Position numbers and translations under genes: made by a program | From: an uncultured Anaerolineaceae bacterium | GTDB lineage: Bacteria > Chloroflexota > Anaerolineae > Anaerolineales > Villigracilaceae | Direction: 5' to 3' | DNA: 40,068 bases | Assembly: GCA_964403635.1 (NCBI GenBank) | Contig: CAYOGW010000005.1 | Coordinates: 6,289-46,356, forward strand | Notes under the pieces: model-generated | The model's input: the letters and a program-made list of their open reading frames with translations, nothing else | Database searches by the model: none | What the model was told of the DNA's origin: nothing | Shown here: positions 6,336-37,571 of the stretch, in pieces | Layout of the letters: each line of letters begins with the position of its first letter | Numbering within the stretch: position 1 is the first letter of the stretch

Positions 6336-6337
6336 AT

Positions 6338-6367: not shown

Positions 6368-6410
6368 TTTGCGCATGCACAGACGAAAATTCTGTTATAA
6401 AATCAAATTC

Positions 6411-11377: not shown

Positions 11378-11418
11378 AATTATACTCGTAACCCTCTTTC
11401 ACTCGTTATAATCAAGTG

Positions 11419-12274: not shown

Positions 12275-13114
12275 CTAAAAGGGGAAAGGTCCAATCCCGC
12301 AATCAACAAACGTGTAGAAAATTGAACCAATGCCGTGATAAGCTGGAATATCAATCGCGCATGAGTCAGGAACAATGGTATCTGGTTCACCGATAAATAT
12401 AGCTGGCAAATCACCTTCTAATTCATCTAAGCAGCCGGGGCCACAGATATCTTCAAAAATAAAATAAAAGACATCGGTAATCTGCTCGTCAGGATGAACA
12501 AAGAAAATCGTATCGCCAGTTTCAGGTTCAGATTCTGAACAATAGTTTCCAACACTAATGGGTGTCATATAATCTTCATCCATCAGGTAGAAAACAAACA
12601 TGGCCATATCTTCACCATCGCCAGTGTCCATAATATCATCAAGTTCTTCTTGAAGGGCTATAAGGGCTGCTTCTTCAGACAAACCTTCACCGATCATGAT
12701 ATTCTCAATATTAAATTGAACACCCCATACAGGGTAGCAAAAATTCTCATTATTCTTTTGCGGAATTACTTCATAGGCAATCCCTTGACCGTCAAATACC
12801 ACCCAGCCCGCCTTACCGGCTTGACCGCCAGAACCGCTTTCAGCCACACAGATCAACATAGTACCGTCGTCGCTGAAATTACAATCCAGACTATATTCAA
12901 CGCCGTCTACCAACAAGTAGCCAGCATCCAATTCAGCTTGAGTCCATTCGCCTGTTACAGCAAATTTAAAAATCAAACCTTTTCCATCACGATGAATGAC
13001 TTCGAGCAAAGTGATCGAACGCCCGCCGTCTGCAAAGGCTGGGCTTGCCTGTGCAAAAAGAAAAATAATAACCATAAAGAAAGCAATAATTCTGGATAGT
13101 AATGTTTTAGACAT
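12275..13114 (-). CDS. Secreted acidic Cys-containing hypothetical protein
   Basis: Signal peptide 'MSKTLLSRIIAFFMVIIFLFAQASPAFA', a strongly acidic (D/E-rich) mature region with 11 Cys, and a 'GPFPF' C-terminus. I recognise no family. Confidence 0.55.
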   Translation of the reverse strand: MSKTLLSRIIAFFMVIIFLFAQASPAFADGGRSITLLEVIHRDGKGLIFKFAVTGEWTQAELDAGYLLVDGVEYSLDCNFSDDGTMLICVAESGSGGQAGKAGWVVFDGQGIAYEVIPQKNNENFCYPVWGVQFNIENIMIGEGLSEEAALIALQEELDDIMDTGDGEDMAMFVFYLMDEDYMTPISVGNYCSESEPETGDTIFFVHPDEQITDVFYFIFEDICGPGCLDELEGDLPAIFIGEPDTIVPDSCAIDIPAYHGIGSIFYTFVDCGIGPFPF

Positions 13115-15212: not shown

Positions 15213-15226
15213 TTAATTCACACTTA

Positions 15227-15257
15227 AACAGCCCCTGTATGCAGGGGCTGTTTATTT
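15227..15257 (+). terminator. Rho-independent terminator after fhs
   Basis: Perfect 9-bp stem 'cagcccctg'/'caggggctg' with loop 'tatg', followed by 'tttattttt'. Confidence 0.75.
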
Positions 15258-15306
15258 TTAACCCGCTTTAAACTGATTTCATAATTTTTTATACACGCAG
15301 CAAGAC

Positions 15307-15319: not shown

Positions 15320-16147
15320 ATGGATACTCCCCGCTTGCACACCCGTATTTTGCCTGCCAGCCGCCCAACGTTAGGAATAAAAGAGTTATGGGCATACCGA
15401 GAATTGCTTTATTTTATGGTCTGGCGAGATATTAAAGTTCGCTACAAACAAACCTTGTTAGGCGCGGCTTGGGCTATCTTGCAGCCACTTTTAACCATGC
15501 TGGTCTTTAGCTTGTTTTTTGGCAAACTGGCTGGCTTACCTTCAGACGGCATTCCCTATCCCATTTTTAGTTTTGCTGGTCTTGTCCCATGGACATTTTT
15601 TGCCAACGGTTTAACCCAATCTACCGCCAGTTTGGTCAACAGTGCCAACTTAATTAAAAAAGTGTACTTTCCGCGCTTAATTATTCCCATCTCAGCCGTA
15701 CTTTCAGGGCTGGTAGATTTCGCCTTGGCGTTTTTCGTGCTTCTTCTCTTGATGGTCTATTACGGCATACAACTCAACATTAACATTTTTTGGCTGCCGG
15801 TTTTTTTACTGTTAGCCTTAGTTACCTCCCTGGGCGCTGGGTTATGGCTGGCTGCCTTAAACGTCAACTACCGAGATGTTCGCTACATCGCCCCCTTCCT
15901 CGTCCAATTTTGGATGTTTGCTTCACCAGTGGCTTACTCCAGCGGCTTACTTTCAGAACCTTGGCGCACACTGTACGGCATTAACCCGCTGGTTGGCGTT
16001 TTAGACGGCTTCCGCTGGGCTTTACTCGGTATTCAAACCGCCCCCACTGCCATTGTTTGGGTTTCAGCCGCCGCCGCCAGCCTGCTCTTCCTCAGCGGAT
16101 TAATTTACTTTCGCGCCGCCGAAAAAACCTTCGCGGATGTGGTTTAA
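15320..16147 (+). CDS. wzm: ABC-2 type polysaccharide export permease (Wzm / TagG / KpsM family)
   Basis: 'ELLYFMVWRDIKVRYKQTLLGAAWAILQPLLTM' is the canonical ABC-2 N-terminal motif. Six predicted TM helices, 275 aa. Confidence 0.85.
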   Translation: MDTPRLHTRILPASRPTLGIKELWAYRELLYFMVWRDIKVRYKQTLLGAAWAILQPLLTMLVFSLFFGKLAGLPSDGIPYPIFSFAGLVPWTFFANGLTQSTASLVNSANLIKKVYFPRLIIPISAVLSGLVDFALAFFVLLLLMVYYGIQLNINIFWLPVFLLLALVTSLGAGLWLAALNVNYRDVRYIAPFLVQFWMFASPVAYSSGLLSEPWRTLYGINPLVGVLDGFRWALLGIQTAPTAIVWVSAAAASLLFLSGLIYFRAAEKTFADVV

Positions 16148-16149
16148 AA

Positions 16150-17412
16150 ATGAGTAACATAGCCATCTCCGTTCAACAGTTGGGTAAGCAATATACCATC
16201 GGCGAAAAGCAGCCCCCCTATCAAACCCTGCGCGATTCTCTCAGCCGCGCCGCCAACCGCTTGTTCTCGCCCCAACATACAGCATCTACCCGCTCATTTT
16301 GGGCGTTACAAAACATTAATTTTGAAATTAATCAGGGCGATGTGGTCGGGATAATTGGCAAAAACGGAGCTGGAAAAAGCACCCTGCTTAAAATACTTTC
16401 TCGCATTACCGAACCCACCCTTGGGTCTGTAGATTTGTATGGCAAGGTTGGTTCACTTCTGGAGGTAGGTACCGGCTTCCACCCCGAACTTACCGGACGA
16501 GAAAATATATTTTTAAACGGCGCCATTTTAGGCATGCACCAAATAGAAATTAAACAAAAATTAGATGAAATCATCGCCTTTGCCGAAATTGAGCCGTTTA
16601 TAGACACCCCTGTAAAACACTACTCCAGCGGCATGTACTTACGGTTGGCTTTCTCAGTGGCGGCTCATTTAGAGCCAGAGATTCTACTGGTAGACGAAGT
16701 ACTAGCCGTTGGCGATTTGGCTTTTCAAAAAAAATGTCTCGGCAAAATGAGTGCTGTTGCCAAGCAAGGCCGTACGATTTTATTTGTCAGCCACGACATG
16801 ACCAGCATTTCCGTTTTATGCCCCACCGCCATTCTGCTAGAAAAAGGACAAATCAACAAGCAGGGACCCACCCTAGAAGTCATTGCAGATTATTTAAAAA
16901 GTAGCACATCTGAAAATGCGGTTACCCGCTGGGACGAACAAACCGCCCCCGGCAACCAACAAGTGCGATTAATTTTAGTGCAAGCCTGTTTAAACGGTCA
17001 AAATAAACCACAAGAAAACTTCTTCATCGAGCAATCCATTTCGCTTCAACTTAGCTTTAAAGTAACAGCTGGTGCAAAAAAACCGCGATTAAACCCGGTA
17101 TTTCGGGTAAGAAATTTAACCGGTTTAACCATCTTCACCACTGCCAATTATGACGACCCAAGCTGGGGTAAAAAGAAATATGAAAACGGAAACTATCATG
17201 TCAGTTGTAAGATTCCAGCACACCTATTTAATGATGGAACCTATTTAATTGATGTGTTGCTTGTGCACGAAAGCCGCGAGGTCTGGGCAGAAGCCGAAGG
17301 CGCGATTCGATTTTCGGTAGCCGATAACGGCAGCACTCGTGGAGATTATGTGGGCGATTGGCACGGCGCGGTTCGCCCCTATTGCACCTGGAACGGAGAG
17401 AAAATTAATTAA
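16150..17412 (+). CDS. wzt: Polysaccharide export ABC transporter ATP-binding protein with C-terminal carbohydrate-binding domain (Wzt / TagH type)
   Basis: Walker A 'GKNGAGKST', signature 'YSSGM', Walker B 'ILLVDE'. An extra C-terminal beta-rich domain of about 170 aa, as in Wzt proteins that read a terminal cap. Start ATG 16150 lies 2 nt after the wzm stop; the overlapping ORF-track start 16057 was rejected. Confidence 0.85.
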   Translation: MSNIAISVQQLGKQYTIGEKQPPYQTLRDSLSRAANRLFSPQHTASTRSFWALQNINFEINQGDVVGIIGKNGAGKSTLLKILSRITEPTLGSVDLYGKVGSLLEVGTGFHPELTGRENIFLNGAILGMHQIEIKQKLDEIIAFAEIEPFIDTPVKHYSSGMYLRLAFSVAAHLEPEILLVDEVLAVGDLAFQKKCLGKMSAVAKQGRTILFVSHDMTSISVLCPTAILLEKGQINKQGPTLEVIADYLKSSTSENAVTRWDEQTAPGNQQVRLILVQACLNGQNKPQENFFIEQSISLQLSFKVTAGAKKPRLNPVFRVRNLTGLTIFTTANYDDPSWGKKKYENGNYHVSCKIPAHLFNDGTYLIDVLLVHESREVWAEAEGAIRFSVADNGSTRGDYVGDWHGAVRPYCTWNGEKIN

Positions 17413-18191
17413 TGAGTGAAATCCCTGAAAGAATTGTGCCCGGCTCGGCAGACTGGGAACACTACTATTACGAGCACAGCCAGCGCTACGAATTTTTTGC
17501 AGACCAATGCAAAGAAAAAACCGTGCTAGATGCGGCTTGTGGTGTGGGCTATGGTAGCCAACTATTAGCCAAAGCCGGAGCCAAACGTGTGCTGGGGGTA
17601 GATATCTCGGAGGAAGCCATTCAGCTAGCCAAAAGCCAATTTAACGGCGAGAAGGTTTCTTTTGAGCCAGCCGATGTCACTCATCTGCATGTGCCAAATG
17701 ATTCTTTTGATGTAGCCGTTAGTTTTGAAACCCTTGAACACATTGCCAAGCCCGAAGCGTTTGTAAAAGAATTAAAACGGGTGCTAAAACCAAACGGGCT
17801 ATTAATCATCAGCACACCCAACAGCCAGTTTGGCAACAAAAGCCAAACAGCCAACCCCTATCACCTTTCTGAATTAACGTTTAATCAATTTAAACTGTTA
17901 ATTAATCAATATTTTCAGATTGAACAAATTTACGCCCACAGCCATACACCCGCTTATTTAAGACACCTACAATTGCTGGAACATCTGAATCAATTGGATC
18001 GTATGGTTCGCTATAGCCCTTTTATTAAATTAGAAAATACCCTACGGCGTTGGTTAGGGCGTTGGCACAGCCAGTTACCGAACTTTCCGGCTGGGTTGGG
18101 TAATGTGCTGCCCGGCGATTTTGAAATTAAACCAATTAATGAAGGCTTACCAGAACACTTAACTTTTATTATTAAGGCTACCAAAAAATAA
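17412..18191 (+). CDS. Class I SAM-dependent methyltransferase
   Basis: Motif I 'VLDAACGVGYGS', an acidic 'VDIS' motif II, 'LKPNGLLIIST' post-I. Start overlaps the wzt stop by 1 nt. Confidence 0.8.
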   Translation: MSEIPERIVPGSADWEHYYYEHSQRYEFFADQCKEKTVLDAACGVGYGSQLLAKAGAKRVLGVDISEEAIQLAKSQFNGEKVSFEPADVTHLHVPNDSFDVAVSFETLEHIAKPEAFVKELKRVLKPNGLLIISTPNSQFGNKSQTANPYHLSELTFNQFKLLINQYFQIEQIYAHSHTPAYLRHLQLLEHLNQLDRMVRYSPFIKLENTLRRWLGRWHSQLPNFPAGLGNVLPGDFEIKPINEGLPEHLTFIIKATKK

Positions 18192-18192
18192 A

Positions 18193-19386
18193 ATGCCAAA
18201 ACCCCTGCATGTTGCCTTTGTTTCGCAAGAATACCCGCCAGAAACTGGCTGGGGCGGCATTGGCTCGTACACCTACGAAATGGCAAACGGGCTGGCAGAG
18301 ATGGGCGTACAAGTGAGCGTAATTTGCTTGGCGCTAGTACAAGAAACACAAACCCAAGAGAAAAATTTAACCATCTACCGTGTGAGACCAGCCCCCCGCT
18401 GGGAACGCCTGCGCGGCGGCTGGCGGATTAACCGATTTTGGCCGGGTTTTGCTTGGGCAGCTGCTCAGCAACTGAGATTAATTAATCAGACTAAGCCGAT
18501 TGATTTGATCGAATATGCCGAAATTCGCGGCGATGGGTTTTTTCTTCCGTTTTTACTACCAGCCATTAAACGAGTGGTGCGCCTGCATACCGCTTGGATT
18601 TTTGTAGATGAATTAAATAAAATTAAACCCAATACTGCTAAAAAATTAATCTACTGGCAAGAAAAACAAAGTGTTTACGCTGCCCATTCTGTCAGTTCGC
18701 CCAGCCACGCCATGTTTGAAAAAACGCTCACTTGGCTGCCGAGCTTAAAAAAGAAGCCGCGTTTTATTTTGCCAAACCCTGTAGATGCCGAAACCTTTTT
18801 ACCAAAAACCAAAACACCCAAACAACAAGAGATTGTATTCATTGGGCGCCCTGAAATTCGCAAAGGGATTGAAACGCTCACCCAAGCCTTGCCAAATATA
18901 TTAGAAAATAATCCACAGGTTGTCTTTCGTTTAATCAGCGACCCGCAAACCGAATTAATGGGTGAACCCGCACAAGAATGGGTTTTAAAACAAATGCCCC
19001 AAAACCTGCACCCGCGCATCACCTTTGAAGCGGTAACCCGAGACCAATTGCCAAAAACGCTCTCCAGCGCCAGCCTCGCCGTGCTGCCCTCGCTTTGGGA
19101 AAACTTTCCCTACGCGATACTCGAAGCCATGTCTTGCGGCTTGCCTGTAGTGGTTACGCGCATTGGCGGCTTACCAGAAATCGTCACCGATTTAGAAAAC
19201 GGGCTGCTTGTGCCTGTCGGTAACACGGCAGCCCTTAGCCAAGCGGTTACGTCTCTACTGCAAAACCCAACCCTACGCGCCAACTTGGGGGCAGCCGCCC
19301 GCCAACAAGTGTTACAAAATTTCAGCCGAAAGGCGGTATTACCCGCTATGCTTTCTTATTATCAAACCCTTGCGAGCCAGCCATGA
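18193..19386 (+). CDS. GT4-family glycosyltransferase (GT-B fold)
   Basis: N-terminal 'FVSQEYPPETGWGGIGSYTYEMANGLAEMG' and C-terminal 'ENFPYAILEAMSCGLPVVVTRIGGLPEIV' (E-x7-E motif region). Confidence 0.8.
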   Translation: MPKPLHVAFVSQEYPPETGWGGIGSYTYEMANGLAEMGVQVSVICLALVQETQTQEKNLTIYRVRPAPRWERLRGGWRINRFWPGFAWAAAQQLRLINQTKPIDLIEYAEIRGDGFFLPFLLPAIKRVVRLHTAWIFVDELNKIKPNTAKKLIYWQEKQSVYAAHSVSSPSHAMFEKTLTWLPSLKKKPRFILPNPVDAETFLPKTKTPKQQEIVFIGRPEIRKGIETLTQALPNILENNPQVVFRLISDPQTELMGEPAQEWVLKQMPQNLHPRITFEAVTRDQLPKTLSSASLAVLPSLWENFPYAILEAMSCGLPVVVTRIGGLPEIVTDLENGLLVPVGNTAALSQAVTSLLQNPTLRANLGAAARQQVLQNFSRKAVLPAMLSYYQTLASQP

Positions 19387-20291
19387 CCTTAATCAGCGTT
19401 GTCATTTGCACCCATAACCGCGCGCCATATCTGCGCGCCGCCTTACAAAGCCTCAGCCAGCAAAGTATGTCAAAATCTCGCTTCGAGGTGCTGGTCATTA
19501 ACAACGCTTCCAGCGATTCTACGGTTCAAGTTGCTGAGAGCTTTCAGCAGTCATTAAATATAAAATTAATTAACGAACCCAACCTAGGGCTTTCTTTGGC
19601 TCGCAATCGCGGGTTAGAAACCAGTAAAAGCGAAATTATTTGTTATATGGATGACGACGCGATAGCCAGCCGAGATTACTTAAAAGCGATTCTTTCCGCT
19701 TTTCGGGCGGTCTCCCCCCAGCCTGCTCTCGTTGGTGGGAGAGTTTTGCTCCACTGGAACGGCCCGCTGCCCAACTGGCTGCCAGAAAAATATCTCAGCC
19801 TATACTCCATGCTCGATTATGGCGAACAAGCCAAATTTATTTCTGAAAGTGAGTACCTTGTTGGTGCAAACTTCGCTGCTCAAACTAGCTTTCTGCGCAG
19901 CATTGGCGGCTTTCAGCCAAGCCTAGGCCGTCAAGGCGGAAACCTGCTCTCGGGAGAAGAAACGCAGGTTCTGCTGAAGGCCCGTCAATTGGGGTTACCC
20001 ATCTATTATCAACCCAGCGCGTTGGTTTGGCATACGGTTACCCCAGGGCGGAAAACACGCGCCTGGCTACGAAAGCGGATTTTTTGGGATGGCGCTTCTC
20101 AACCCTTAATTAATTGGAAAGCCGAGCAACCAAAAAGTTATTACTTTAAACAAAGCCTCATCGACCTGCGCCGTATGATTCGCTTTTGCTGGGACCTGCT
20201 TCAAGGCTCTCCGGATGCTTTTTATCATTTGATTCAGCGCAGCGGACGGCTGCGCACCCATTTAATGCTGTGGCTGGGAATTAATCGTTAA
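19383..20291 (+). CDS. GT2-family glycosyltransferase (GT-A fold)
   Basis: 'ISVVICTHNRAPYLRAALQSLSQQ' and the 'YMDDDA' DxD motif. Start overlaps the previous stop (ATGA). Confidence 0.8.
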   Translation: MTLISVVICTHNRAPYLRAALQSLSQQSMSKSRFEVLVINNASSDSTVQVAESFQQSLNIKLINEPNLGLSLARNRGLETSKSEIICYMDDDAIASRDYLKAILSAFRAVSPQPALVGGRVLLHWNGPLPNWLPEKYLSLYSMLDYGEQAKFISESEYLVGANFAAQTSFLRSIGGFQPSLGRQGGNLLSGEETQVLLKARQLGLPIYYQPSALVWHTVTPGRKTRAWLRKRIFWDGASQPLINWKAEQPKSYYFKQSLIDLRRMIRFCWDLLQGSPDAFYHLIQRSGRLRTHLMLWLGINR

Positions 20292-20292: not shown

Positions 20293-22947
20293 ATGCATAT
20301 TTGTTTTGTCTCTTTAGATTATCCTTCGGAAACTTCTGGCGGCGGCGTAGGAACAATTATGCAGCTGCTGGCAAAGGGATTTTCAGAAGACTGTCAACAA
20401 GTCAGTGTGATTGCGCTTCAACAAGAAGGTGAAGCCCCTTTCTCGCGGGATGGCGATGTGCTTATTTGGCGGTTTAAACCTTCTCACTTGCATTGGTATG
20501 TTTCAAAAATTCCATGGCTGGGAAAGAACTTAAGCCCCGTGGTGAGAGAATTAGAACGAAGCTGGGGCGCTTGGCGGCTGCTACAAAAAATTAATCAACA
20601 AAAAGAAGTTCATGCCGTTGAATTAATTGAAACCGGCGGGCTGTTTATTTCGCTTTTAGAAAGAGCCAAATTAATCGCGGTGCGCTTACACGGCGAACAA
20701 TATACTTTTCAAAAATATACACCTTTCCTTCAACTCAATTGGGGGTTAAAACTCACCCGTTTCATCCAACGTGTTGCCATCCGCAATGCCAATTTAAGAA
20801 TTTCCCCCAGCCACTGGCACGCCCAAGAAATTGCTGAAGAAACCGGTTTAAATAAGCAATCTATTCTGGTTTTATCGAATGCCATTGCTATTCCAACCAA
20901 GTTTCAGTTTTCAAATAATCACGCCAACCCTTTAATTCTTTTTGCTGGACGTTTAGAGCAATTAAAAGGTGTGCCATTGTTATTAGAAGCGTTTGCTTTA
21001 CTGCGAAAAGAAATGCCGCATGTTCGGCTTGCCTTAGCAGGAACATCTCACCCCAGCTTGCCAGAAAGCCAATTGAAAGAACTCATCCATCAATACCACC
21101 TTGAAAAATCAGTTCAACTGCTGGGATACATCCCCAACCAACAGTTAAAAGATTGGTTTAAAAAATCATCTGCGCTGGTGCTGCCTTCGTATTACGAAAG
21201 CTTTGGCTTAGCCGCCTTAGAAGCCATGGCGCACGGTTTACCAGTGGTTGCCTCTACAGCGGGCGCTTTACCCGAATTAATTAAAGAGAATGAAACTGGC
21301 TTGTTATTTAAAAGCGGAGACGCGCAAGCTTTGGCTGGTCAACTAAAAAAAATATTAAGTAGCCCCAAGCTACAAAAGCATTTGGCAAAAAATGCTCACC
21401 GCTTTAGTTTGCAACACTTTAATGCAAAAGAAAGCATTCTGCAAAACTTAACCCTTTATAAAAATAACTTAAAAATCCCGCCAAGCCCCAAACATGTGTT
21501 TTTTTCTCCACATTTGGATGATGTCATCCTTTCGTGCGGTGGAACAGTGAAAGAATTAAATAAAAACGCGCCTGTTGAAGTGGTGACAGTTTTTAGCGGT
21601 CAACCCAAAACCGCCGCAATAGGCACATTTGCAGAACACATTCATGCCAAGTGGAACTTGCCGCCGCAGACCGCAATTCTTTCTCGCCGCGATGAAGACC
21701 TGCTGGCTTTTTCAATTCTGTCTCCTACTATCCAAGTGACCCATTGGGGTTATCTAGAGGCGTTATACCGTCAGGAAAAAAACCACCAACCCCTGCATTC
21801 CGCTTATCAAAGCCTGCGTGGACCTCTACATCAGCAAGAAGAAGCCTTGATACCAACCCTTGTTTCACAAATCGAAAACCATTATTCAAAAGAAAATCAA
21901 CTTTATTTTCCAATGGGTTTGGGCACTCATGTAGACCACCGCATCTTATTTAAAACAGGCTACCAATTAAATCAACGGGGCTGGCCAGTGTTTTTTTATG
22001 AAGACTGGCCCTATGCAGAAAATTACGAACCTATTAGTAAGAAAAATTGGCAAGTTCTTGATCAACCAATTTCGCTTACCGAAAAAATTAAAGCGGCCGA
22101 AGCCTATGGATCTCAGCAAAAAGGGCTTGGGTATAGCCTAGCCGACCGATTAACAAACTATGCTCATCAAAACAAAAACCCATTGAAGACCAGTGAACGC
22201 ATTTGGCAGGCACAGCCCAACGATGAAGAAGTACCATTTAAACTCAAAAAGAAACAATGGCAGCTTGCCGATTTTTTAATTTTTTATAAAAGCCTTAACT
22301 GGAGAGATCTCTCCGAGCGGCTGCCGTTGGGCAGCGGTTACTGTTTAGATATTGGCAGTGGCAGCGGCAGAAACCAAGTAGCCATTGAAACCAAAGGTTA
22401 CACTTGGCTAGGGCTGGATTTAAACCGTCAGCGGAGGCAACACCTGCAAGCCAGCGCCAGCCGCCTGCCGGTAGCCAGCCAAAGCGTTGAGGCGGCTATT
22501 CTTTGGCAAGTGCTAGAATATCTCGAAAACCCTCAACAAGCGTTAGCAGAAGCCATCCGCACTTTAAAACCTGGCGGCGTGCTCTGCGGTAGCGTTTCAT
22601 TTTTAGAGCCGGTTCATGGACAAACCTATTATGGCATCAGCCATCACGCCATTCAAAAATTATTAATAGACCAACCTTTGCTGGATATTCAGATTCAGCC
22701 GGGCATTTCTGGCTTTACCCTGCTGATATGGACCTGGCTTAATCGTCTAGGCTTAAGCAGGCTAAGCGGATTGTGCCTGCCGTTATCGAGGTTTTTTTTG
22801 GTGCCCCCAGCCGCTTTGCTATTTTTGGTCAGTTGGCTGCAATGGCGGTTAGGCTGGGGCAGCGGGCATTTTATGGCGTGGCTGACAGAACGCGCCCCGC
22901 TGGAATTTGCAGGGCATATTCACTTTATTGCCAGAAAAGCAAGCTAA
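20293..22947 (+). CDS. Tri-domain enzyme: GT4 glycosyltransferase / LmbE(PIG-L)-family N-acetylglucosaminyl deacetylase / class I SAM methyltransferase, with C-terminal hydrophobic segment
   Basis: aa 1-390 GT4 ('ESFGLAALEAMAHGLPVVASTAGALPELI'). aa ~400-640 LmbE-like ('VFFSPHLDDVILSCGG' resembling the HPDDE zinc motif, and 'GLGTHVDHR' resembling HxDH). aa ~650-884 MTase ('CLDIGSGSGRN', 'LKPGGVLCGSV'), followed by a hydrophobic tail. Confidence 0.75.
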   Translation: MHICFVSLDYPSETSGGGVGTIMQLLAKGFSEDCQQVSVIALQQEGEAPFSRDGDVLIWRFKPSHLHWYVSKIPWLGKNLSPVVRELERSWGAWRLLQKINQQKEVHAVELIETGGLFISLLERAKLIAVRLHGEQYTFQKYTPFLQLNWGLKLTRFIQRVAIRNANLRISPSHWHAQEIAEETGLNKQSILVLSNAIAIPTKFQFSNNHANPLILFAGRLEQLKGVPLLLEAFALLRKEMPHVRLALAGTSHPSLPESQLKELIHQYHLEKSVQLLGYIPNQQLKDWFKKSSALVLPSYYESFGLAALEAMAHGLPVVASTAGALPELIKENETGLLFKSGDAQALAGQLKKILSSPKLQKHLAKNAHRFSLQHFNAKESILQNLTLYKNNLKIPPSPKHVFFSPHLDDVILSCGGTVKELNKNAPVEVVTVFSGQPKTAAIGTFAEHIHAKWNLPPQTAILSRRDEDLLAFSILSPTIQVTHWGYLEALYRQEKNHQPLHSAYQSLRGPLHQQEEALIPTLVSQIENHYSKENQLYFPMGLGTHVDHRILFKTGYQLNQRGWPVFFYEDWPYAENYEPISKKNWQVLDQPISLTEKIKAAEAYGSQQKGLGYSLADRLTNYAHQNKNPLKTSERIWQAQPNDEEVPFKLKKKQWQLADFLIFYKSLNWRDLSERLPLGSGYCLDIGSGSGRNQVAIETKGYTWLGLDLNRQRRQHLQASASRLPVASQSVEAAILWQVLEYLENPQQALAEAIRTLKPGGVLCGSVSFLEPVHGQTYYGISHHAIQKLLIDQPLLDIQIQPGISGFTLLIWTWLNRLGLSRLSGLCLPLSRFFLVPPAALLFLVSWLQWRLGWGSGHFMAWLTERAPLEFAGHIHFIARKAS

Positions 22948-22948
22948 C

Positions 22949-25284: not shown

Positions 25285-26724
25285 GTGGCATCTCAGAAAA
25301 AATCGTTAGGCGGTTTAAAACCCATTCCCAAAAGTGACCTTTCTTTACCCGCGCCATTTATTGTGCTTTTTTTAGTTTGGGGGGTTGCGTTTGCTTTATT
25401 GGCTTCCCCTTTGGTTGCCAGCATGAGCACTGTAGAAAAAATTATTGTATTAGCAATTCCCGCCGTTTTATCTGTTTTGGTAGTGTTGTTAGACATTGAG
25501 CATGGCATGACGTTTTGGGTATTAGGGTTAACGCTGCTGGTAACCCAAACTGGTTTTCAATTAGATATTTCTACTTTAAGAACCAGCGCTTTAGAATTAA
25601 TGACTATTTTGCTAATGGTCATTTTATTTTTTGACCGCACGGGTTTGTTTAAGCGCGTTTGGGCGTTGTTTCCGGGGCGTGTACCGGTTACTTTATTTGC
25701 GTTGTTTTCATTATTAATGTTATTTGTTGGGGTTATTCAAGGCGACAATTTATTACAAGCTCTTTCTCAATTAAAAGGATTTTTAATTTACCCGTTAATG
25801 GGAATTTTGCTGGCGGCGGGCATTCGGTCTACCGCTATGTTGCGCTGGGTCATTGGCATTGTTTTGGCTTGGTATGTTTTAGTGGCTGGCTGGGGCATTC
25901 TTCAATTTGTTCAGGGACAAAATATGTTGGCTCAAGACTATTTGTTCCGTGCATCTGGCGAATATGCCCCGATTAATATTTATGGTATTACTTTAATGGC
26001 TTGTGCATTATTGTTAGCGGGCATTGTCATCAGTACGCGCGGATTTCGCAGCCGTGTGCTGGGCAGTGGATTAATGATTTGGCTCATTATTGGCATGCTG
26101 GTTTCTGTTTCTCGCTCGGCTTTGCTTGGCTTGGTAATTGGCTTAATTGTCTTGTTTTTAGAAAGAAAAAGCCTTCGTATGATTATTGTTGGCTTGATAT
26201 TGGTGGGTCTCGCCGCTTGGGCGCTTTCAGACCTGCTTCCGCACGAAATCACCAACCGTTTATTTCAACTATCCGATTCATCCACTGTCCGGCGCGAATT
26301 CTACCTAGAATCAGGTTGGCAAGCTTTGCTCACTTTTTGGGCGTACGGCGGCGGCTGGGGCAATGGCTATTGGTATGTTTCTAACGCGGGCTTGGTGAAA
26401 TCTGGTTTTATGCCTTGGTATCACAATGATTTTTTAAACCTAGCGGTTCAAATTGGCGTTTTTGGCGCTTTTTTATATATCCTTTTTTGGGGGCGGGTCG
26501 TTCAAACCGGTTGGCTTTGGCTGCGCACCTACGCCACTAGTCAGCCAGAACTAGTTCCATTTGCGCGCGGCGCGCTGGCCGCGTTAATCGGCTTGCTGGT
26601 GGCCGCGGTTTTTGAACATGTTTTATGGCGCCCAGATATTGCCGGTTTGGTGGGTTGGATGCTCGGCATTTTAATTGCCATAATCACTTTGCAAAAACGC
26701 TTTGCTGAAGATACACCCGCATGA
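25285..26724 (+). CDS. Wzy_C / O-antigen ligase family polytopic membrane protein (polymerase, WaaL-like ligase or O-oligosaccharyltransferase)
   Basis: About 11 predicted TM helices. 'SVSRSALLGLVIGLIVLF' and 'WYHNDFLNLAVQIGVFGAF' resemble the Wzy_C loop/helix motifs with conserved R and H. GTG start with SD 'aggagt'. Confidence 0.65.
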   Translation: MASQKKSLGGLKPIPKSDLSLPAPFIVLFLVWGVAFALLASPLVASMSTVEKIIVLAIPAVLSVLVVLLDIEHGMTFWVLGLTLLVTQTGFQLDISTLRTSALELMTILLMVILFFDRTGLFKRVWALFPGRVPVTLFALFSLLMLFVGVIQGDNLLQALSQLKGFLIYPLMGILLAAGIRSTAMLRWVIGIVLAWYVLVAGWGILQFVQGQNMLAQDYLFRASGEYAPINIYGITLMACALLLAGIVISTRGFRSRVLGSGLMIWLIIGMLVSVSRSALLGLVIGLIVLFLERKSLRMIIVGLILVGLAAWALSDLLPHEITNRLFQLSDSSTVRREFYLESGWQALLTFWAYGGGWGNGYWYVSNAGLVKSGFMPWYHNDFLNLAVQIGVFGAFLYILFWGRVVQTGWLWLRTYATSQPELVPFARGALAALIGLLVAAVFEHVLWRPDIAGLVGWMLGILIAIITLQKRFAEDTPA

Positions 26725-31412: not shown

Positions 31413-31482
31413 CCCGATGTTGCAATGTTCTTATACGCATTGAATTGGCATAATGGGGCTACTCTATAAAGGAAAGACGCTT

Positions 31483-32994
31483 ATGAAAAGTTTACCCATT
31501 ACACGCCCAATTATCCAAATTGAAGAAAACGCCGGCCTGCAAAAATGGATTAATGTTGTCCTTAAACGCAGTTTCGATATCTTTGCTTCTCTGTTTGGGC
31601 TTTTGCTTCTTGCTCCATTTTTTGTATTAATTGGCTTCTTTATAAAACGCGAATCTCCCGGCCCGGTCTTCTTTAAAGGGCCTCGCATGGGCAAAAACCA
31701 ATCTATTTTTTACATTTGGAAATTCCGCACCATGTACGAAAGAGTAGAAAGTTATGAAGGGCCTTCCATCACAGCCAAAGGAGATGCCCGTATCACACCC
31801 CTTGGTCACTGGTTACGATTAACAAAAATAAACGAATTACCTCAATTAATTAATGTTTTGTTTGGGGAAATGAGTTTGGTTGGGCCTCGCCCTGAAGTGC
31901 CAGAAATTGCCCAAGACTGGCCCAAAGACGCCAAGCGAGAAGTGCTTTCCGTTCAACCTGGCATTACCAGCCCCGCTTCTATTCTCTATCGAGATGAAGA
32001 AGCTATGTTAATTGGCAATAACAGCATGGATGATTACCTGCGAAAAATATTGCCAGATAAACTTCGCCTCGACCAGCTTTATGTTCGCAATCACACCTTC
32101 TTATCCGATTTAGATGTCATTTTGATGACATTAATCGTGCTGCTGCCAACTGTTCGCAACACACCCATTCCTGAAGCGCGCTTATACGTTGGTCCACTTT
32201 CTATCTTTACCCACCGCATCTGGAATTGGTTTGTCATTGACAGCTTAATTGCTTTTACTGCCATCGCCGCCGCAGGTATTTTGTGGCGCACAGGCGGCCC
32301 GCTAGAACTAGGCGTTGATGTAGCCCTATTGGTGGGGTTAATCATGGCATTAATATTCAGCCTATCAAATTATCTCTTAGGCCTGCATCGTGTCGCTTGG
32401 AGATACGCCCCACCGGCTCTGGCGATTGACTTGGCATTTTCTGGCTTCTTAGCCACCCTAAGCATTGTTGCAGTTAATTTCTCGTGGCCTGGGCAGCAAC
32501 TGCCACTAGGAATGCTTTTATTTTCTGGCTTTTTCACCTTTATCGGTTTTACAGCCGCCCGCTACCGCGAGCGCCTTCTTATGGGCTTGGCCTCCCGCTG
32601 GGTATACCACCGTAACCGCTTTAGCCCGATTGGCGAACGTGTCTTAATTGTTGGCGCCGGTGAATATGGTCAAATGGCCGCTTGGCTTATGCAAAAAAGC
32701 GCCTTCGCTTCGGCTTATGTAATTTTAGGCATGGTCGACGATGACATTCACAAACAAGGCATGTTAATTGACGGTTACCCGGTAGTTTGCGGCTCACGAG
32801 AATTAGCCCGCATGGTTAAAGACAAAGATGTAGGTTTAATTTTATTTGCCATCTCAAACATTAATCCGCGAGAACGAGAGCGAATTTTAAACATCTGCCG
32901 CAAAACCAACGCAAGGGTTGTCATCATGCCCGATATTTTGCAAATTTTACACACCCAATTAGCACAAGAGACTCCTTACCAAACCTATGCCTAA
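31483..32994 (+). CDS. Polyprenyl-phosphate phosphoglycosyl transferase (bacterial sugar transferase family) with atypical order: catalytic domain, then 4 TM, then Rossmann-like domain
   Basis: N-terminal 'KRSFDIFASLFGLLLLAPFFVLIGFFIKRESPGPVFFKGPRMG...FYIWKFRTM...NELPQLINVLFGEMSLVGPRPEVPE' is the PGT catalytic core. Four TM helices then follow, then 'LIVGAGEYGQMAAWLM...ILGMVDDD', which resembles the cytoplasmic Rossmann-like domain of WbaP/PglF-type proteins. SD 'ggaaag' before ATG 31483. Confidence 0.75.
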   Translation: MKSLPITRPIIQIEENAGLQKWINVVLKRSFDIFASLFGLLLLAPFFVLIGFFIKRESPGPVFFKGPRMGKNQSIFYIWKFRTMYERVESYEGPSITAKGDARITPLGHWLRLTKINELPQLINVLFGEMSLVGPRPEVPEIAQDWPKDAKREVLSVQPGITSPASILYRDEEAMLIGNNSMDDYLRKILPDKLRLDQLYVRNHTFLSDLDVILMTLIVLLPTVRNTPIPEARLYVGPLSIFTHRIWNWFVIDSLIAFTAIAAAGILWRTGGPLELGVDVALLVGLIMALIFSLSNYLLGLHRVAWRYAPPALAIDLAFSGFLATLSIVAVNFSWPGQQLPLGMLLFSGFFTFIGFTAARYRERLLMGLASRWVYHRNRFSPIGERVLIVGAGEYGQMAAWLMQKSAFASAYVILGMVDDDIHKQGMLIDGYPVVCGSRELARMVKDKDVGLILFAISNINPRERERILNICRKTNARVVIMPDILQILHTQLAQETPYQTYA

Positions 32995-34158: not shown

Positions 34159-36036
34159 ATGGAAATTAAGTTTTATATTGCCATTCTTAAACGCTGGGCT
34201 TGGTTGCTCATCGCTGGCTTAATCATAAGCAGCTTATTGGGGTATGGTATTTCACTTTTAGAAACCCCCACCTACCAAGCCAGTACCAAAGCGTTGGTTA
34301 TGCGCCCTTCGCAAAATAACAGCACCGAATTGGGTTATTTATCTGACCAGCAATTGGTGCAAACCTTTATGCAGCTATTAACCACCACTCCAGTGGTCGA
34401 TACCGCATCGCAGCGATTAAGCTTCCCCATTGACCGAACCAAAATAACCGTTCAGCAAGTGCGCGATACCCAAGTGATTTTGGTAACAGTTGAAGACACC
34501 GAACCTTTACGCGCAGCCATGATTGCTAATGTGATGGTAGAAGTATTGGTCGAACAAAATGAAAACCTGCAATCTGGGCGATACCTTTCGATTGAAGAAT
34601 CATTAAACAGCCAAATTTCTCAAGTAGAAGCTCAAATTAACGAATTACAACTAGAAATTGACCAAATTTCTACTGCGCGCGTACAAGACCAAACCGACCA
34701 AATTCAGGCACAAATTAACACATTACAAAGCCAAATTGTGGCCTTAGAAAGTGAAAATGGGCGATTATCTGCCGCACCGGCACAAAACGCATCTCAAATT
34801 GCTGAAAATAATGCCCGCATTGCTCAAAGTAAATCCCTGCTCAATGTCTATCAAGAAATTTTTACCAACTTGGTCATTTTGGGTAAACCGGCAGAAAGTT
34901 CCGGGTCAGATTATGTCACCCGCTTACAATCTACCTTAAAACTATATCAAGAAATTTATTTGCAATTGCTCACCAACCTAGAGAATGTACGCCTTGCTCG
35001 GCTGCAAAACACCCCTAACTTGGTTCAAATTGAAAAAGCAGAAGTGCCTTTTATACCCATTAGCCCCAAGCCTTTTGTTAACATGGCCATTGCCGGAGCG
35101 ATTGGTTTAATGCTGGCCGCCAGCGGCGTGTTTATTTACGAATATTTAAATGACACACTGCGTACCCCTCATGATGTTGAGAAGATGCTCGACTTGCCAG
35201 TCTTAGGCTATATCTCAGAAATGACAAACACAGCCGAAAATAAAGTAACCGGTTTAACCGTTTTAGACCAGCCTCGGTCGCCCATTTCTGAAGCCTTTCG
35301 TGTGCTGCGAACTAATTTAGAATTCGCAGCAACGGACCAAGCCTTACAAACCCTGCTGGTTACCAGTTCACGCCCATCCGAAGGAAAAACAACCGTAGCC
35401 GCCAACCTAGCCGCCAGCTTTGCTCAGCGCGGAAAGCGCGTTTTATTGGTAGATTGTGACCTGCGCAGACCCGCAGTTCACCGCATCATGCGCATCCCAA
35501 ACCGAACCGGTTTAAGCACCCTCTTCCGCGGAGAAGTTCACCTCGATGCGGTAATCCGTAATATCGAAAACGGCATCACAGAAATTGGTGTTATTACCAG
35601 CGGAAGTATTCCCGCCAATCCCGCAGAGTTATTACAGTCGGACCGCATGTTAATGATTTTGGCAGAATTAAGAAACGCAGCCGATATTATCATATTAGAC
35701 AGCCCCCCCATTATGCTGGCAGATGCTCAAGTGTTAGCCGCTTTGGTAGATGGTGTAATTTTAGTGATGCAGCCCGGCCGCTCCAAAAACGAAGAATCTC
35801 GCTCCACTCTTGCGCAACTTAATCGCGCGGGCGCGCGGGTATTGGGTACTGTCTTTAATCGAATACCCAAAGACAACCGAGAATATTATGGCGGCTACCA
35901 ATACTATTCTACTGAAGGCTACGGGGCATACGCATCCCCTACTGACCGCCCTATCCAAACCATTTCTACCTATAAAGAGCCTTCTACCCGCCCGAACTTA
36001 AATCCAACCAACTCACATCGCCGATCCAATAGGTAA
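34159..36036 (+). CDS. wzc: Polysaccharide co-polymerase fused to bacterial tyrosine autokinase (Wzc-type; Wzz domain + BY-kinase + C-terminal Tyr cluster)
   Basis: TM1 'WAWLLIAGLIISSLLGYGISLL', a long coiled-coil ecto-domain, TM2 'MAIAGAIGLMLAASGVFIY'. Kinase Walker A 'SSRPSEGKTTVAANLAASFA', Walker A' 'VDCDLRRP', Walker B 'IILDSPP'. Tyr-rich tail 'EYYGGYQYYSTEGYGAY'. Confidence 0.85.
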   Translation: MEIKFYIAILKRWAWLLIAGLIISSLLGYGISLLETPTYQASTKALVMRPSQNNSTELGYLSDQQLVQTFMQLLTTTPVVDTASQRLSFPIDRTKITVQQVRDTQVILVTVEDTEPLRAAMIANVMVEVLVEQNENLQSGRYLSIEESLNSQISQVEAQINELQLEIDQISTARVQDQTDQIQAQINTLQSQIVALESENGRLSAAPAQNASQIAENNARIAQSKSLLNVYQEIFTNLVILGKPAESSGSDYVTRLQSTLKLYQEIYLQLLTNLENVRLARLQNTPNLVQIEKAEVPFIPISPKPFVNMAIAGAIGLMLAASGVFIYEYLNDTLRTPHDVEKMLDLPVLGYISEMTNTAENKVTGLTVLDQPRSPISEAFRVLRTNLEFAATDQALQTLLVTSSRPSEGKTTVAANLAASFAQRGKRVLLVDCDLRRPAVHRIMRIPNRTGLSTLFRGEVHLDAVIRNIENGITEIGVITSGSIPANPAELLQSDRMLMILAELRNAADIIILDSPPIMLADAQVLAALVDGVILVMQPGRSKNEESRSTLAQLNRAGARVLGTVFNRIPKDNREYYGGYQYYSTEGYGAYASPTDRPIQTISTYKEPSTRPNLNPTNSHRRSNR

Positions 36037-36041
36037 CCCGT

Positions 36042-36545
36042 ATGCCATCTGTATTATTTGTCTGCCGCGCCAATCAATTTCGTTCTCCCATCGCGGCAGC
36101 GTGTTTTGAAAGAAAATTAAAAAGCCTAAACTGGAAACAAACTTGGGTCATTGACAGCGCTGGTACTTGGGCGTCAGATGGCCTAGCTGTTGCAGCCTTA
36201 CCCAAACAAGTTGCCAACCAATTAGGGCTTTCATTAGAAACTCATATTGCGAACTTAATCACTGCCGAGTTATTAGAAAAATTTGACTTAATTCTGGTGA
36301 TGGAAGATGGACAAAAAGAAGCCCTGTGGGTTGAATTTCCTGAAGCACAGAACAGAATTAAAATGTTAACCGAATTAGTTAGCAATGAAAGCTATAACAT
36401 CATCGACCCAGATGGCGAAAGCCTAGAGTTTAGCCAAGCCCTCGCCGAAGAAATATGCCGATTAATTGAAAGTGGATTTTTTAGAATTGTTACACAAGCC
36501 TTAACGCTACACAGTATGCGCTTAAAAACACAAGTCTTTAATTAA
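36042..36545 (+). CDS. Low-molecular-weight protein tyrosine phosphatase (Wzb-like)
   Basis: P-loop 'VLFVCRANQFRSPIA' (C-x5-R-S) and the Asp loop 'IIDPDG'. 167 aa, immediately after the BY-kinase gene. Confidence 0.7.
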   Translation: MPSVLFVCRANQFRSPIAAACFERKLKSLNWKQTWVIDSAGTWASDGLAVAALPKQVANQLGLSLETHIANLITAELLEKFDLILVMEDGQKEALWVEFPEAQNRIKMLTELVSNESYNIIDPDGESLEFSQALAEEICRLIESGFFRIVTQALTLHSMRLKTQVFN

Positions 36546-36557: not shown

Positions 36558-37571
36558 ATGAAAATCTCATCAAACACTTGGTTACTTTTTACCTTAATCG
36601 CTTTAGTCGCTTCGGCTTGTATCGGTGGCTTTATATTTGTAAGCCAGTTTTTGCAAACAGGCGCACCCCTTAACGTAAACACCAACCCAACCCTACTGCC
36701 TACCACAGTGGCATTAACTGTGCTTAATACACCTACCTTGGTAGCAGAAAATACGGCTACATCCATCCCACCGGTAGGCACTTGTGGACAAACCGGAAAA
36801 AATCAAGTCTTAATTGTCGTTTTTGCCAGCGCTGGTGAAGAGCCTGTCGGATCAGAAGCCATTTATCTAATTCAAGCCAATTATGCCAACCCACAAATTA
36901 AAGGGCTTGCCTTCGACCGTGAATTAACGGTACAAACCCCCAGCCAATCAGGCTACCCAAGTAGCACTGCCAAATTAAACGACCTGTATAATTTTCGCTT
37001 AAACCAATTCGGCGGCGTAAGCCAACCACAAGCCCACCCCGGCGCTGTAAATTTAATCTCGCAGGCTATTTTTGACAATTATGGTTTAGTACCTAATAAT
37101 TACATTGCCTTTGATGCCTTAATGTTGCCCAACATTGTTAATGCCATTGGCGGGCTGGATGTAAACCTTCCGGCTGCCTACCGATACGGTGCTTTTTCTG
37201 TTCCTGCAGGCGTTCAAAAATGGAATGGAGCAACCACCCTTGCTTATGTCAGCGCCTTGGCAGATAACGAAACAGAAGTTCAGCGGCGTGAAAGGCAAAT
37301 ATTGGTATTAAACGCTTTATTGCTGAACCCAACCTTTATTGGTCGCTTACCAGAATTAACTGACCGAATTAAAAACAGCATCATCACCGATTTAGATGCC
37401 ACCCAAATTACCAACCTAGCCTGCTTAGCCAGCCAACTGGGCTCCTTTGATGCCCCCATTACAAGCGTCAATGGGGATAATGGCGTCCGAAAGCCAGATG
37501 GCAGTATTTCATTCTTTTTAGCAAGTGATTTAAAAGCCTATCTTCTGGAGTGGCAAGGGCAACTCCCTTAA
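36558..37571 (+). CDS. LytR-CpsA-Psr (LCP) family glycopolymer-to-peptidoglycan ligase
   Basis: N-terminal TM anchor, then 'VLIVVFASAGEE...AIYLIQANYAN' and 'AYVSALADNE...ERQILVLNALL', consistent with the LCP catalytic domain pattern (moderate similarity). SD 'aggagt' upstream. Confidence 0.55.
   Translation: MKISSNTWLLFTLIALVASACIGGFIFVSQFLQTGAPLNVNTNPTLLPTTVALTVLNTPTLVAENTATSIPPVGTCGQTGKNQVLIVVFASAGEEPVGSEAIYLIQANYANPQIKGLAFDRELTVQTPSQSGYPSSTAKLNDLYNFRLNQFGGVSQPQAHPGAVNLISQAIFDNYGLVPNNYIAFDALMLPNIVNAIGGLDVNLPAAYRYGAFSVPAGVQKWNGATTLAYVSALADNETEVQRRERQILVLNALLLNPTFIGRLPELTDRIKNSIITDLDATQITNLACLASQLGSFDAPITSVNGDNGVRKPDGSISFFLASDLKAYLLEWQGQLP

Follow-up and report, generated by a model that had tools for sequence, protein, structure and literature searches.

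Organization of the locus

Our analysis covered a window of 40,068 nucleotides, meaning the whole stretch of DNA under study (contig CAYOGW010000005.1, positions 6,289 to 46,356), from an uncultured Anaerolineaceae bacterium. The window encodes a glycan operon. Its 5′ boundary is marked by an intrinsic terminator that belongs to the formate-THF ligase gene upstream (15225..15254, +) and consists of a 13-bp stem, with GC pairs at 7 positions, and a T-run after it. A promoter-like site lies before wzm (15258..15285, +; TTAACC-16-CATAAT, 9/12 consensus matches), which is a consensus match only, such sites being no more frequent in this region than expected from shuffled sequence. The ABC-2 permease Wzm, the partner of Wzt, is encoded at 15320..16147 (+; PF01061, E 5e-23), and its gene ends two nucleotides before the start of wzt. 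The wzt gene (16150-17412, +) begins with an ATG, encodes 420 aa and ends with a TAA at 17410-17412. It is followed by the gene for MT1 (17412..18191, +), a stand-alone class I SAM methyltransferase of 259 aa (Methyltransf_11, E 1.9e-26). The coordinates of both genes in the original prediction were exact, and its description of the second product as a small stand-alone SAM methyltransferase was borne out. The ATG of MT1 shares one base with the wzt stop codon (TAATG, a 1-nt overlap), and from this arrangement MT1 is predicted to be translationally coupled to wzt.

Pfam matches identify the next two products as the GT4 glycosyltransferase GT4a (18193..19386, +) and the GT2 glycosyltransferase GT2a (19383..20291, +). 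Both are members of a conserved module with collinear orthologs in the related loci described below, at 33-49% identity for GT4a in the 11 loci that extend that far. They are followed by a trifunctional protein of 884 aa with a hydrophobic C-terminus (20293..22947, +), in which Pfam domains of a GT4 glycosyltransferase (residues 17-369), a PIG-L-type de-N-acetylase (residues 403-556) and a methyltransferase (residues 685-765, within a methyltransferase region at ~674-768) were found. A third methyltransferase is encoded at 30648-31412, beside the initiating transferase and a DegT aminotransferase gene that is also part of the operon. These are the two further methyltransferase domains that had been expected downstream.

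Downstream of the trifunctional protein a Wzy_C-family membrane protein is encoded (25285..26724, +; PF04932, 43.7 bits). The initiating polyprenyl-phosphate glycosylphosphotransferase, Bac_transf (31453..32994, +), matches PF02397 (E 2.3e-53) and TIGR03025 (261 bits), and its C-terminal region resembles CoA_binding_3/PglD_N. A Wzc-like PCP/BY tyrosine autokinase (34159..36036, +) shows Wzz, GNVR and CbiA/ParA Pfam matches and scores 178 bits, over the cut-off, with TIGR01007. It is followed by a low-molecular-weight protein tyrosine phosphatase (36042..36545, +; PF01451, E 3.2e-22), which is likely its partner, and by an LCP (LytR-CpsA-Psr) glycopolymer transferase (36558..37571, +; PF03816, E 6.8e-14) that reaches 40.8 bits with TIGR00350, under the cut-off of 62.3.

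Domain structure of Wzt

The N-terminal half of Wzt (residues 1-247; 16150..16890, +) is a canonical ABC ATPase (PF00005, E 1.2e-21), and the Walker A (GKNGAGKST), signature (YSSGM), Walker B (ILLVDE) and H-loop (SHD) motifs can all be read from the sequence. The best PDB match to full-length Wzt is Wzt of Aquifex aeolicus (8dku, E 1e-67), with an alignment that reaches into the tail domain. ATPases of uncapped systems, such as the exporters of mycobacterial galactan and of teichoic acid, are short (234-280 aa in PDB) and match only the nucleotide-binding domain (NBD), at residues ~24-265.

The remainder of the protein forms a C-terminal carbohydrate-binding domain (CBD; residues ~258-420; 16921..17409, +). 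Its AF2 model (pLDDT 91.8) has the jelly-roll/beta-sandwich fold of such domains, and in a Foldseek search with this model ranks 1-11 were all Wzt CBDs, the nearest structure being the A. aeolicus CBD at a sequence identity of only ~17%. The expected Wzt-type beta-sandwich was thus recovered, and of the proposed recognition as a Wzt-C module the structural part held while the sequence part fell short: the match to Pfam Wzt_C (PF14524) amounted to 28.7 bits (E 1.5e-6), under the gathering score of 30.4. A PDB sequence search with the tail alone returned no Wzt CBD and one chance match to a xylanase (E 0.89), a PDB search with a 32-sequence profile of the tail subfamily found nothing and hence no solved CBD, and hhalign against the E. 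coli O9 Wzt tail gave a probability of 1.6%. Given the sub-threshold Wzt_C score and the empty profile search, Wzt_C membership rests on fold and not on sequence.

The A. aeolicus CBD has 3-O-methyl-mannose or -rhamnose as its ligand and does not bind mannose, and the domain is essential for the export of capped O antigen (PMC9445017). In the characterised terminated O-polysaccharide systems all transporters carry such a module, which reads the terminal residue (PMC11231755). Thr346, Ala348, His350 and Trp362, which belong to the methyl pocket in A. aeolicus, are not conserved in the CBD subfamily studied here, and the aligned Wzt positions D368, L370, H373 and W380 vary even within the query's own subfamily. 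For this reason a transfer of ligand specificity from A. aeolicus is ruled out. The tail does carry a strongly conserved motif, RGDYxGxWxGxVRP, in a loop at residues 397-410, together with invariant Trp residues (W261, W339, W414) and an invariant APG at 266-268.

The methyltransferase MT1

The AF2 model of MT1, built from database homologs (pLDDT 91.4), shows one compact Rossmann-fold domain with a helical lid, and the SAM motifs (VLDAACGVGYGS, D64), with G44/G46, are intact. In fold it comes nearest to the sugar O-methyltransferases RebM and AtmM, amid many generic methyltransferases, and MT1 orthologs are automatically annotated as UbiE, UbiG or SAM-dependent methyltransferase. A scan of genome contigs with MT1 gave unrelated methyltransferases only. 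The original prediction had pointed to capping enzymes of the WbdD type. MT1 aligns with residues 9-147 of WbdD at 24% identity over 144 aa (BLASTP, E 3e-6) and with the WbdD methyltransferase domain over 123 columns (hhalign, probability 95%), a likeness that, judged from these alignments, would be no closer than that of any two generic class I methyltransferases. WbdD was absent both among the 60 PDB sequence matches listed (of 63) and from the top 50 fold matches, and the same two sets contained no named NDP-sugar methyltransferase. Membership of MT1 in the WbdD family and its assignment as an NDP-sugar methyltransferase are accordingly both unsupported by the sequence and fold match lists.

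The architecture of WbdD is not reproduced either. A kinase domain of the O9a/O3 type is absent from MT1, and by Pfam no gene of the operon encodes one. The MT1 model contains neither a coiled coil nor a membrane anchor; all it offers are two short helices, at residues 180-200 and 203-214, that pack against the catalytic domain. None of the operon proteins screened had an unassigned stretch of sufficient length to form a coiled coil in the cytoplasm. With kinase, coiled coil and anchor all missing from MT1, the WbdD-type part of the original prediction has to be given up, and a chain length set by a ruler is unsupported. MT1 nevertheless is our candidate for the chain-end capping enzyme.

Pairing of wzt and MT1 in related loci

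Close MT1 orthologs (at least 41% identity, most full-length) were found in 14 loci, the window included. In 14/14 of these a Wzt with the same CBD subfamily is encoded directly upstream of MT1. Stop/start overlap of the two genes is usual in this set and extends to 4-8 nt in L001, L004 and L005. In about 60 further loci the similarity to MT1 is confined to its generic Rossmann part, and a single one of these (L040) encodes a Wzt, which lies on the other strand and matches the CBD weakly. Where the CBD of a Wzt relative has diverged, other genes follow, namely an FkbM-type methyltransferase (L086), sugar-nucleotide genes (L087) or a GT2 (L088). Judged from these gene neighborhoods, the pairing of wzt with the methyltransferase is not a coincidence of the window.

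Wzm orthologs (58-68% identity) lie upstream of wzt in related loci, and in L001 a TPR gene is situated between the two. The Wzc-like gene is found directly upstream of wzm/wzt in L004, L005, L006, L010 and L011. Full-length orthologs of the 884-aa fusion occur in L004, L005, L010 and L011, only its GT4 part is encoded in L001 and L007, and the fusion is absent from L013 and L014. These last four loci retain both CBD and MT1 without the PIG-L-methyltransferase fusion, which makes MT1 the constant partner. In a comparison of pairwise identities (mirror-tree style) the CBD-MT1 correlation (rho 0.74) was no better than that between NBD and MT1 (rho 0.68) and hence reflects shared ancestry. The correlation was therefore discarded as evidence for a specific co-evolution of CBD and MT1.

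Host envelope and polymer attachment

The host is, judged from homologs of its formate-THF ligase, a member of the Anaerolineales (Chloroflexota). It has LCP and sortase genes and is without Wza, and on these grounds it looks monoderm. It follows that the polymer would be a wall- or protein-linked glycan and not an LPS O antigen. The LCP gene suggests attachment to the cell wall. In this ABC-dependent pathway the Wzy_C protein, which has an ortholog of 43% identity in L001, most likely functions, by analogy to WsaB of Geobacillus, as a ligase of the WaaL/WsaB kind and not as a polymerase; a PDB sequence search with the protein, aimed at telling these two roles apart, returned no match.

Comparison to known systems

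The WzmWzt structures of A. aeolicus (PDB 6o14, 8dky, 7k2t, 8dku) share with our Wzt the architecture of NBD, linker and C-terminal jelly-roll. What they bind is a methyl cap (3-O-methyl-Man or -Rha), and no capping methyltransferase is named in the same work (PMC9445017). A. aeolicus is a diderm that makes LPS O antigen, in contrast to the Anaerolineales genome described here, which carries LCP and sortase genes but lacks Wza. The proposed logic is the same as in E. coli O8/O9a (Klebsiella O5/O3), where methylation of the chain end is read by the Wzt CBM, and the gene order wzm-wzt-wbdD of E. coli HS O9 corresponds to wzm-wzt-MT1 in the window. WbdD, however, is a protein of 708 aa that in O9a includes a kinase and that further has a long coiled-coil ruler and a C-terminus by which it is anchored to the membrane and recruits WbdA, whereas MT1 consists of a single domain.

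The slg pathway for the S-layer glycan of Geobacillus stearothermophilus NRS 2004/3a (Wzm, Wzt, WsaE, WsaB, WsaP) comes from a monoderm, as seems to be the case here. Stop and start codons of wzm-wzt-wsaE overlap, as those of wzt and MT1 do in the window, the chain ends in a 2-O-methyl cap that Wzt is proposed to recognize, and a WbaP-type (Bac_transf) initiator occurs together with a Wzy_C-domain transferase in an ABC-dependent cluster (PMC2943079), again as in the window. Geobacillus also has a TPR protein, WsaA, as L001 has its TPR gene. The two systems differ in that the WsaE methyltransferase is fused to two rhamnosyltransferase domains while MT1 stands alone, in that the window adds a BY-kinase, an LMW phosphatase and an LCP gene to the Geobacillus set, and in that neither an S-layer target protein nor rml genes were identified in the window. 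By description MT1 can also be likened to PA5457 and PA5459 of the Pseudomonas aeruginosa CPA, small methyltransferases without membrane- or glycosyltransferase-interaction domains that are encoded in a Wzm/Wzt-dependent rhamnan locus, but not adjacent to wzt. Polymer production requires at least one of the two, and their over-expression does not lead to WbdD-like chain shortening; they do not act in the way of WbdD as chain-length regulators.

Proposed pathway and alternative explanations

We propose an ABC-transporter-dependent glycan pathway with cap-gated export and MT1 as the capper. As a whole this explanation has, in our estimate, an even chance of being correct, while cap-gated export by itself is well supported by inference. 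From the domain content, the polymer would be built in the cytoplasm on polyprenyl-phosphate, with Bac_transf starting the chain and the GT4/GT2 enzymes extending it. MT1, co-translated with Wzt, would O-methylate the sugar at the growing non-reducing end and thereby halt elongation. The Wzt CBD, whose fold matches that of cap-reading modules, might then recognize the capped end and load the chain into the Wzm/Wzt channel, and export would be powered by ATP hydrolysis at the NBD with its canonical motifs. Once outside the membrane, the polymer may be joined to a wall or protein acceptor by the ligase-like Wzy_C protein, the LCP enzyme or both. As no coiled-coil ruler protein was found, chain length would result from kinetic competition between capping and elongation and not from a WbdD-type ruler, with a possible contribution of the Wzc-like PCP. 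Of the predicted coupling of a methyl cap to export and length, the export part is thus strengthened by the pairing in 14/14 loci and by a gene order shared with E. coli O9 and Geobacillus, and the length part, as far as it implied a WbdD-like ruler, is not retained.

The cap read by the CBD might be made by a protein other than MT1, which would then decorate internal residues. The two other methyltransferase domains of the operon could be cap makers, and a special chain end might come instead from the 884-aa fusion, which would add an amino sugar, de-N-acetylate it and methylate it; another glycosyltransferase might also supply a unique sugar as the cap. The fusion is conserved and collinear in most related loci, and multidomain terminators in which a methyltransferase is fused to glycosyltransferases are known from WsaE (PMC2943079) and Klebsiella O7 ORF6 (PMC11231755). 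Sugars can likewise serve as caps, e.g. Kdo in O12 and O4 (PMC11231755); Raoultella, listed in the original prediction as a methyl-cap example, is in fact such a case, as the Raoultella/Klebsiella O12 cap is Kdo added by a glycosyltransferase (PMC11231755). The gene coupled to wzt in every one of the 14 loci is nonetheless MT1 and not the fusion, and the four loci with a reduced or missing fusion all keep MT1 and the CBD subfamily, and we regard another cap maker as somewhat improbable. More distant is the explanation that MT1 acts on an NDP-sugar precursor or a non-glycan substrate, the methyl sugar being incorporated along the whole chain by a glycosyltransferase. The generic Methyltransf_11 character of MT1 with its UbiE/UbiG-named orthologs would fit, as would the DegT aminotransferase, by which modified sugars appear to be made. 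It is the methyltransferase at 30648-31412, however, that adjoins DegT and the initiating transferase, whereas MT1 is tied to wzt and lacks a named NDP-sugar methyltransferase among its matches, so that this explanation seems very unlikely.

The Wzt tail could also be a beta-sandwich without any role in cap gating, serving general binding of repeat units, dimerisation or regulation of the ATPase, in which case the linkage of wzt and MT1 would be that of an inherited compact operon. The sub-threshold Wzt_C score and the missing A. aeolicus pocket residues are in line with such a role, and the co-variation test does not discriminate. Against it, every terminated O-polysaccharide system characterised so far has a CBM that reads the terminal cap (PMC11231755), capped O antigen export needs the CBD (PMC9445017), the ATPases of uncapped systems are short and match the NBD only, and the RGDYxGxWxGxVRP motif with its invariant Trp residues argues for a specific binding or interface role. 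We consider a tail without cap gating unlikely.

Significance of the wzt-MT1 pair

Cap-gated export with MT1 as the capper appears to be a further instance of a system already known, in which the end of the chain is capped before export, and not a new mechanism, and the known mechanism is unchanged by our findings. A more far-reaching and rather doubtful reading is that the Wzt-CBD/MT1 pair is the signature of a widespread uncharacterised hybrid pathway, in which a cap-reading ABC exporter acts alongside a BY-kinase co-polymerase of the Wzc type and a ligase-like Wzy_C protein, with Wza added in diderm relatives, LCP used instead here, and no coiled-coil ruler. If true, such a pathway would cut across the textbook split between ABC-dependent and Wzy-dependent assembly.

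Cap-gated ABC export was established before for O antigens of Gram-negative bacteria and for a single S-layer glycan, that of Geobacillus. If the proposed pathway is confirmed, it would reach Chloroflexota and a family of environmental loci with one conserved gene module. MT1 would then represent a minimal terminator of 259 aa with no ruler, and a clean system for chain-length control without a coiled-coil spacer. The constant pairing of one CBD subfamily with one methyltransferase family would furthermore provide a practical genomic marker to predict methyl-capped polymers in uncultured bacteria.

Organization of the glycan operon

Our analysis confirmed the wzt-methyltransferase pair named by the original prediction, whose limits coincide exactly with two ORFs, 16150-17412 (+; wzt, 420 aa from ATG) and 17412-18191 (+; 259 aa, hereafter MT1). 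The wzt stop and the MT1 start codon have one base in common (TAATG), and only 2 nt separate wzt from the ABC-2 permease gene wzm (15320-16147, +; PF01061, E 5e-23). Both the Wzm/Wzt transporter and the SAM methyltransferase are intact, the latter being translationally coupled to wzt in a conserved pairing. The upstream formate-THF ligase gene (13302-15212, +; 636 aa) is followed by a strong terminator (15225-15254, +; 13-bp stem plus T-run) and, just 3′ of it and ahead of wzm, by a promoter-like site, and a new transcription unit therefore starts with wzm. Same-strand genes run on from there to 37571, with small gaps or overlaps in nearly all cases. MT1 is followed by GT4 and GT2 glycosyltransferases, a GT4/PIG-L deacetylase/methyltransferase fusion (20293-22947), two further GT4 enzymes, a Wzy_C protein, four further glycosyltransferases, a third methyltransferase, a Bac_transf initiating enzyme (31453-32994), directly thereafter a PseC-like DegT aminotransferase and, at the operon end, a Wzc-like BY-kinase, a low-molecular-weight tyrosine phosphatase and an LCP protein (34159-37571), all on the plus strand. 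The two additional downstream methyltransferase domains that had been predicted are thus those of the fusion and of the third methyltransferase gene. Neither a Wzx flippase nor Wza was found among the operon genes through 37571. A module with BY-kinase and Wzy_C in which no Wzx was seen is an unusual mix of ABC-dependent and Wzy-dependent parts.

Several genes deserve separate mention. The mechanical ORF 22907-24121 (+) starts at TTG with a 41-nt overlap with the preceding gene; the ATG at 22946 (MQILFLS...) is probably the true start, because its 2-nt overlap with the preceding stop better matches the tight coupling of the operon. In the initiating phosphoglycosyl transferase the domains are unusually ordered, with Bac_transf N-terminal (residues 38-231) and a CoA_binding_3/PglD_N-like (NeuD/PglB-type) region C-terminal (residues 316-493). 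No 4,6-dehydratase was found in the operon, although the PseC-like aminotransferase follows the Bac_transf gene. Convergent with the operon end lies a gene for a 697-aa protein (37636-39729, -) with Big_3_5 and He_PIG Ig-like domains and a C-terminal sortase domain. The other flank carries a gene of the amino-acid-kinase family (11416-12216, +), whose product may be an isopentenyl phosphate kinase, and a 279-aa ORF (12275-13114, -) with a hydrophobic, signal-like N-terminus and an acidic body that contains Cys; the latter had no Pfam match, nor did ORFs 7828-9399 and 10415-11377.

The Wzt tail

The N-terminal half of Wzt is a canonical ABC ATPase (PF00005, E 1.2e-21). Its best solved relative is the full-length Wzt of A. 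aeolicus (8dku, 7k2t; E ~1e-67), with an alignment that reaches residue 373, within the tail. Sequence comparison identifies the tail only weakly: Pfam Wzt_C scored 28.7 bits (E 1.5e-6), below the gathering score of 30.4, the isolated tail retrieved no Wzt carbohydrate-binding domain (CBD) from the PDB (a xylanase at E 0.89 being a chance match), a 32-member subfamily profile gave no PDB matches, and hhalign against the E. coli O9 Wzt returned a probability of 1.6%. The question was settled by structure. An AF2 model from the subfamily alignment (pLDDT 91.8, pTM 0.86) has ten beta-strands, and Wzt CBDs fill Foldseek ranks 1-11 (best E 9e-7). The modelled tail thus has the Wzt-type CBD fold, a CBM-like beta-sandwich, as the predicted glycan-binding tail would have it.

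Within the subfamily the tail is far more variable than the ATPase (median identity 31% vs 65%), with invariant Trp residues and the C-terminal motif RGDYxGxWxGxVRP being kept. Residues 392-414 (about 17323-17391) are nearly invariant as D-x-G-x-x-R-G-D-Y-x-G-x-W-x-G-x-V-R-P-x-x-x-W and form the sole low-confidence loop of the model (pLDDT ~64); this loop may be a ligand trap, or an interface to the ATPase domain or partner protomer that is formed only in the dimer. The residues of the A. aeolicus methyl pocket, Thr346, Ala348, His350 and Trp362 (PMC9445017), are not conserved in the subfamily, and the ligand is therefore not readable from homology.

MT1 and its pairing with Wzt

As expected for a small stand-alone methyltransferase, MT1 belongs to the class I SAM enzymes (Methyltransf_11, E 1.9e-26) and has intact SAM-binding motifs. 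Its AF2 model (pLDDT 91.4) is a single compact domain in which a Rossmann core is joined by a short hairpin of helices (residues 180-214) and by two strands that close the fold, with no kinase, coiled coil or separate membrane anchor. The nearest folds include the sugar O-methyltransferases RebM (E 3e-15) and AtmM (E 9e-15), by a small margin over a long list of generic small-molecule methyltransferases. WbdD itself has 708 aa and comprises a kinase, a coiled-coil ruler and a C-terminus with a recruiting function. MT1 aligned only with the N-terminal Rossmann part of the WbdD encoded in the E. coli HS O9 cluster (24% identity over 144 aa, E 3e-6; hhalign probability 95%), and WbdD was absent from the 60 PDB sequence matches listed (of 63) and from the best 50 fold matches. 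The predicted WbdD-type terminator did not hold in this respect: MT1 does not share the WbdD architecture, and a WbdD-like ruler fixing chain length is not supported. In function, MT1 may resemble a capping enzyme of the WbdD-O8 type.

The family of close, full-length MT1 orthologs is small (roughly 25 clusters), and outside it matches cover the generic N-terminal part only. We retrieved 80 metagenomic loci with MT1 relatives and screened them with profiles of the NBD and the CBD that were built from Wzt homologs. Wherever the MT1 ortholog showed at least 41% identity, a Wzt of the CBD subfamily ended at the MT1 start (14 of 14 loci: L006-L014, L016, the Wzt-derived L001, L004 and L005, and the window). 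Four remoter full-length relatives (34-37% identity) also follow a Wzt, whose tail is diverged or of another kind. Of the about 60 loci that match in the Rossmann core only, L040 alone encodes a Wzt; this one lies on the opposite strand and matches the CBD weakly. Behind Wzt with more diverged tails we found an FkbM-type methyltransferase (L086), sugar-nucleotide genes (L087) or GT2 (L088). Pairwise identities of CBD and MT1 correlate (rho 0.74), which we rejected as evidence for specific co-evolution since the value hardly exceeds that for NBD and MT1 (rho 0.68). The closest related locus, L001, has a NusG paralog ahead of the cluster (4534-5046), possibly an operon-specific antiterminator, and a TPR protein inserted between wzm and wzt (6251-7090) that recalls the Geobacillus TPR protein WsaA; neither is present in the window.

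Host envelope and related pathways

All close homologs of the formate-THF ligase (81-89% identity) come from Anaerolineales or Chloroflexi MAGs, and this gene is the sole taxonomic anchor of the window. The LCP enzyme at the operon end, the adjoining sortase gene and the lack of Wza among the operon genes point to a monoderm-type envelope, in which the polymer would be a glycan linked to wall or protein, as opposed to an LPS O antigen. In its overall make-up the locus comes closest to the Geobacillus slg pathway for S-layer glycan, which combines Wzm/Wzt with a methyltransferase that caps the chain, a WbaP-type initiator and a Wzy_C transferase; its genes follow the order wzm-wzt-terminator with overlapping codons, and the methyltransferase domain of WsaE makes a 2-O-methyl cap (PMC2943079). 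The same order occurs in E. coli O9 (E. coli HS cluster). Many environmental loci show collinearity over the entire block Wzm-Wzt-MT1-GT4-GT2-(GT4/PIG-L/methyltransferase)-GT4-GT4. A Wzc-like BY-kinase/PCP consistently accompanies the Wzm/Wzt module (34159-37571, +, in the window; L004, L005, L006, L010, L011, L086). Its companions are the phosphatase and LCP in the window and Wza in diderm-looking loci; in related loci with Wza it lies directly upstream of wzm/wzt.

A model for cap-gated export

In analogy to characterised systems, MT1 would methylate the non-reducing terminal sugar and thereby halt elongation, and the Wzt CBD would bind the capped end and license export. If chain length is set by the cap, capping would compete with elongation, and the PCP might modulate this. 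We give this complete scheme, with MT1 as writer and the CBD as reader of the cap, an even chance. The main rival, which we consider rather unlikely, is that another enzyme provides the cap, notably the trifunctional fusion, and that MT1 decorates internal residues. The 884-aa fusion combines GT4, a PIG-L/LmbE-type de-N-acetylase, a SAM methyltransferase and a hydrophobic C-terminus, and could attach an amino sugar, remove its acetyl group and methylate it. L004, L005, L010 and L011 have full-length orthologs (37-40% identity) in collinear position. To our knowledge there is no characterised equivalent. Four loci (L001, L007, L013, L014) have kept CBD and MT1 and are missing the PIG-L/methyltransferase fusion, so that MT1 is the CBD's constant partner.

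The observation behind the original prediction is hence confirmed and its interpretation partly supported. As we read it, the locus is a case of cap-gated ABC export, a known mechanism, with a stand-alone, ruler-less methyltransferase in Chloroflexota. Unsurprising to the specialist, it can serve as a genomic marker and a minimal model.
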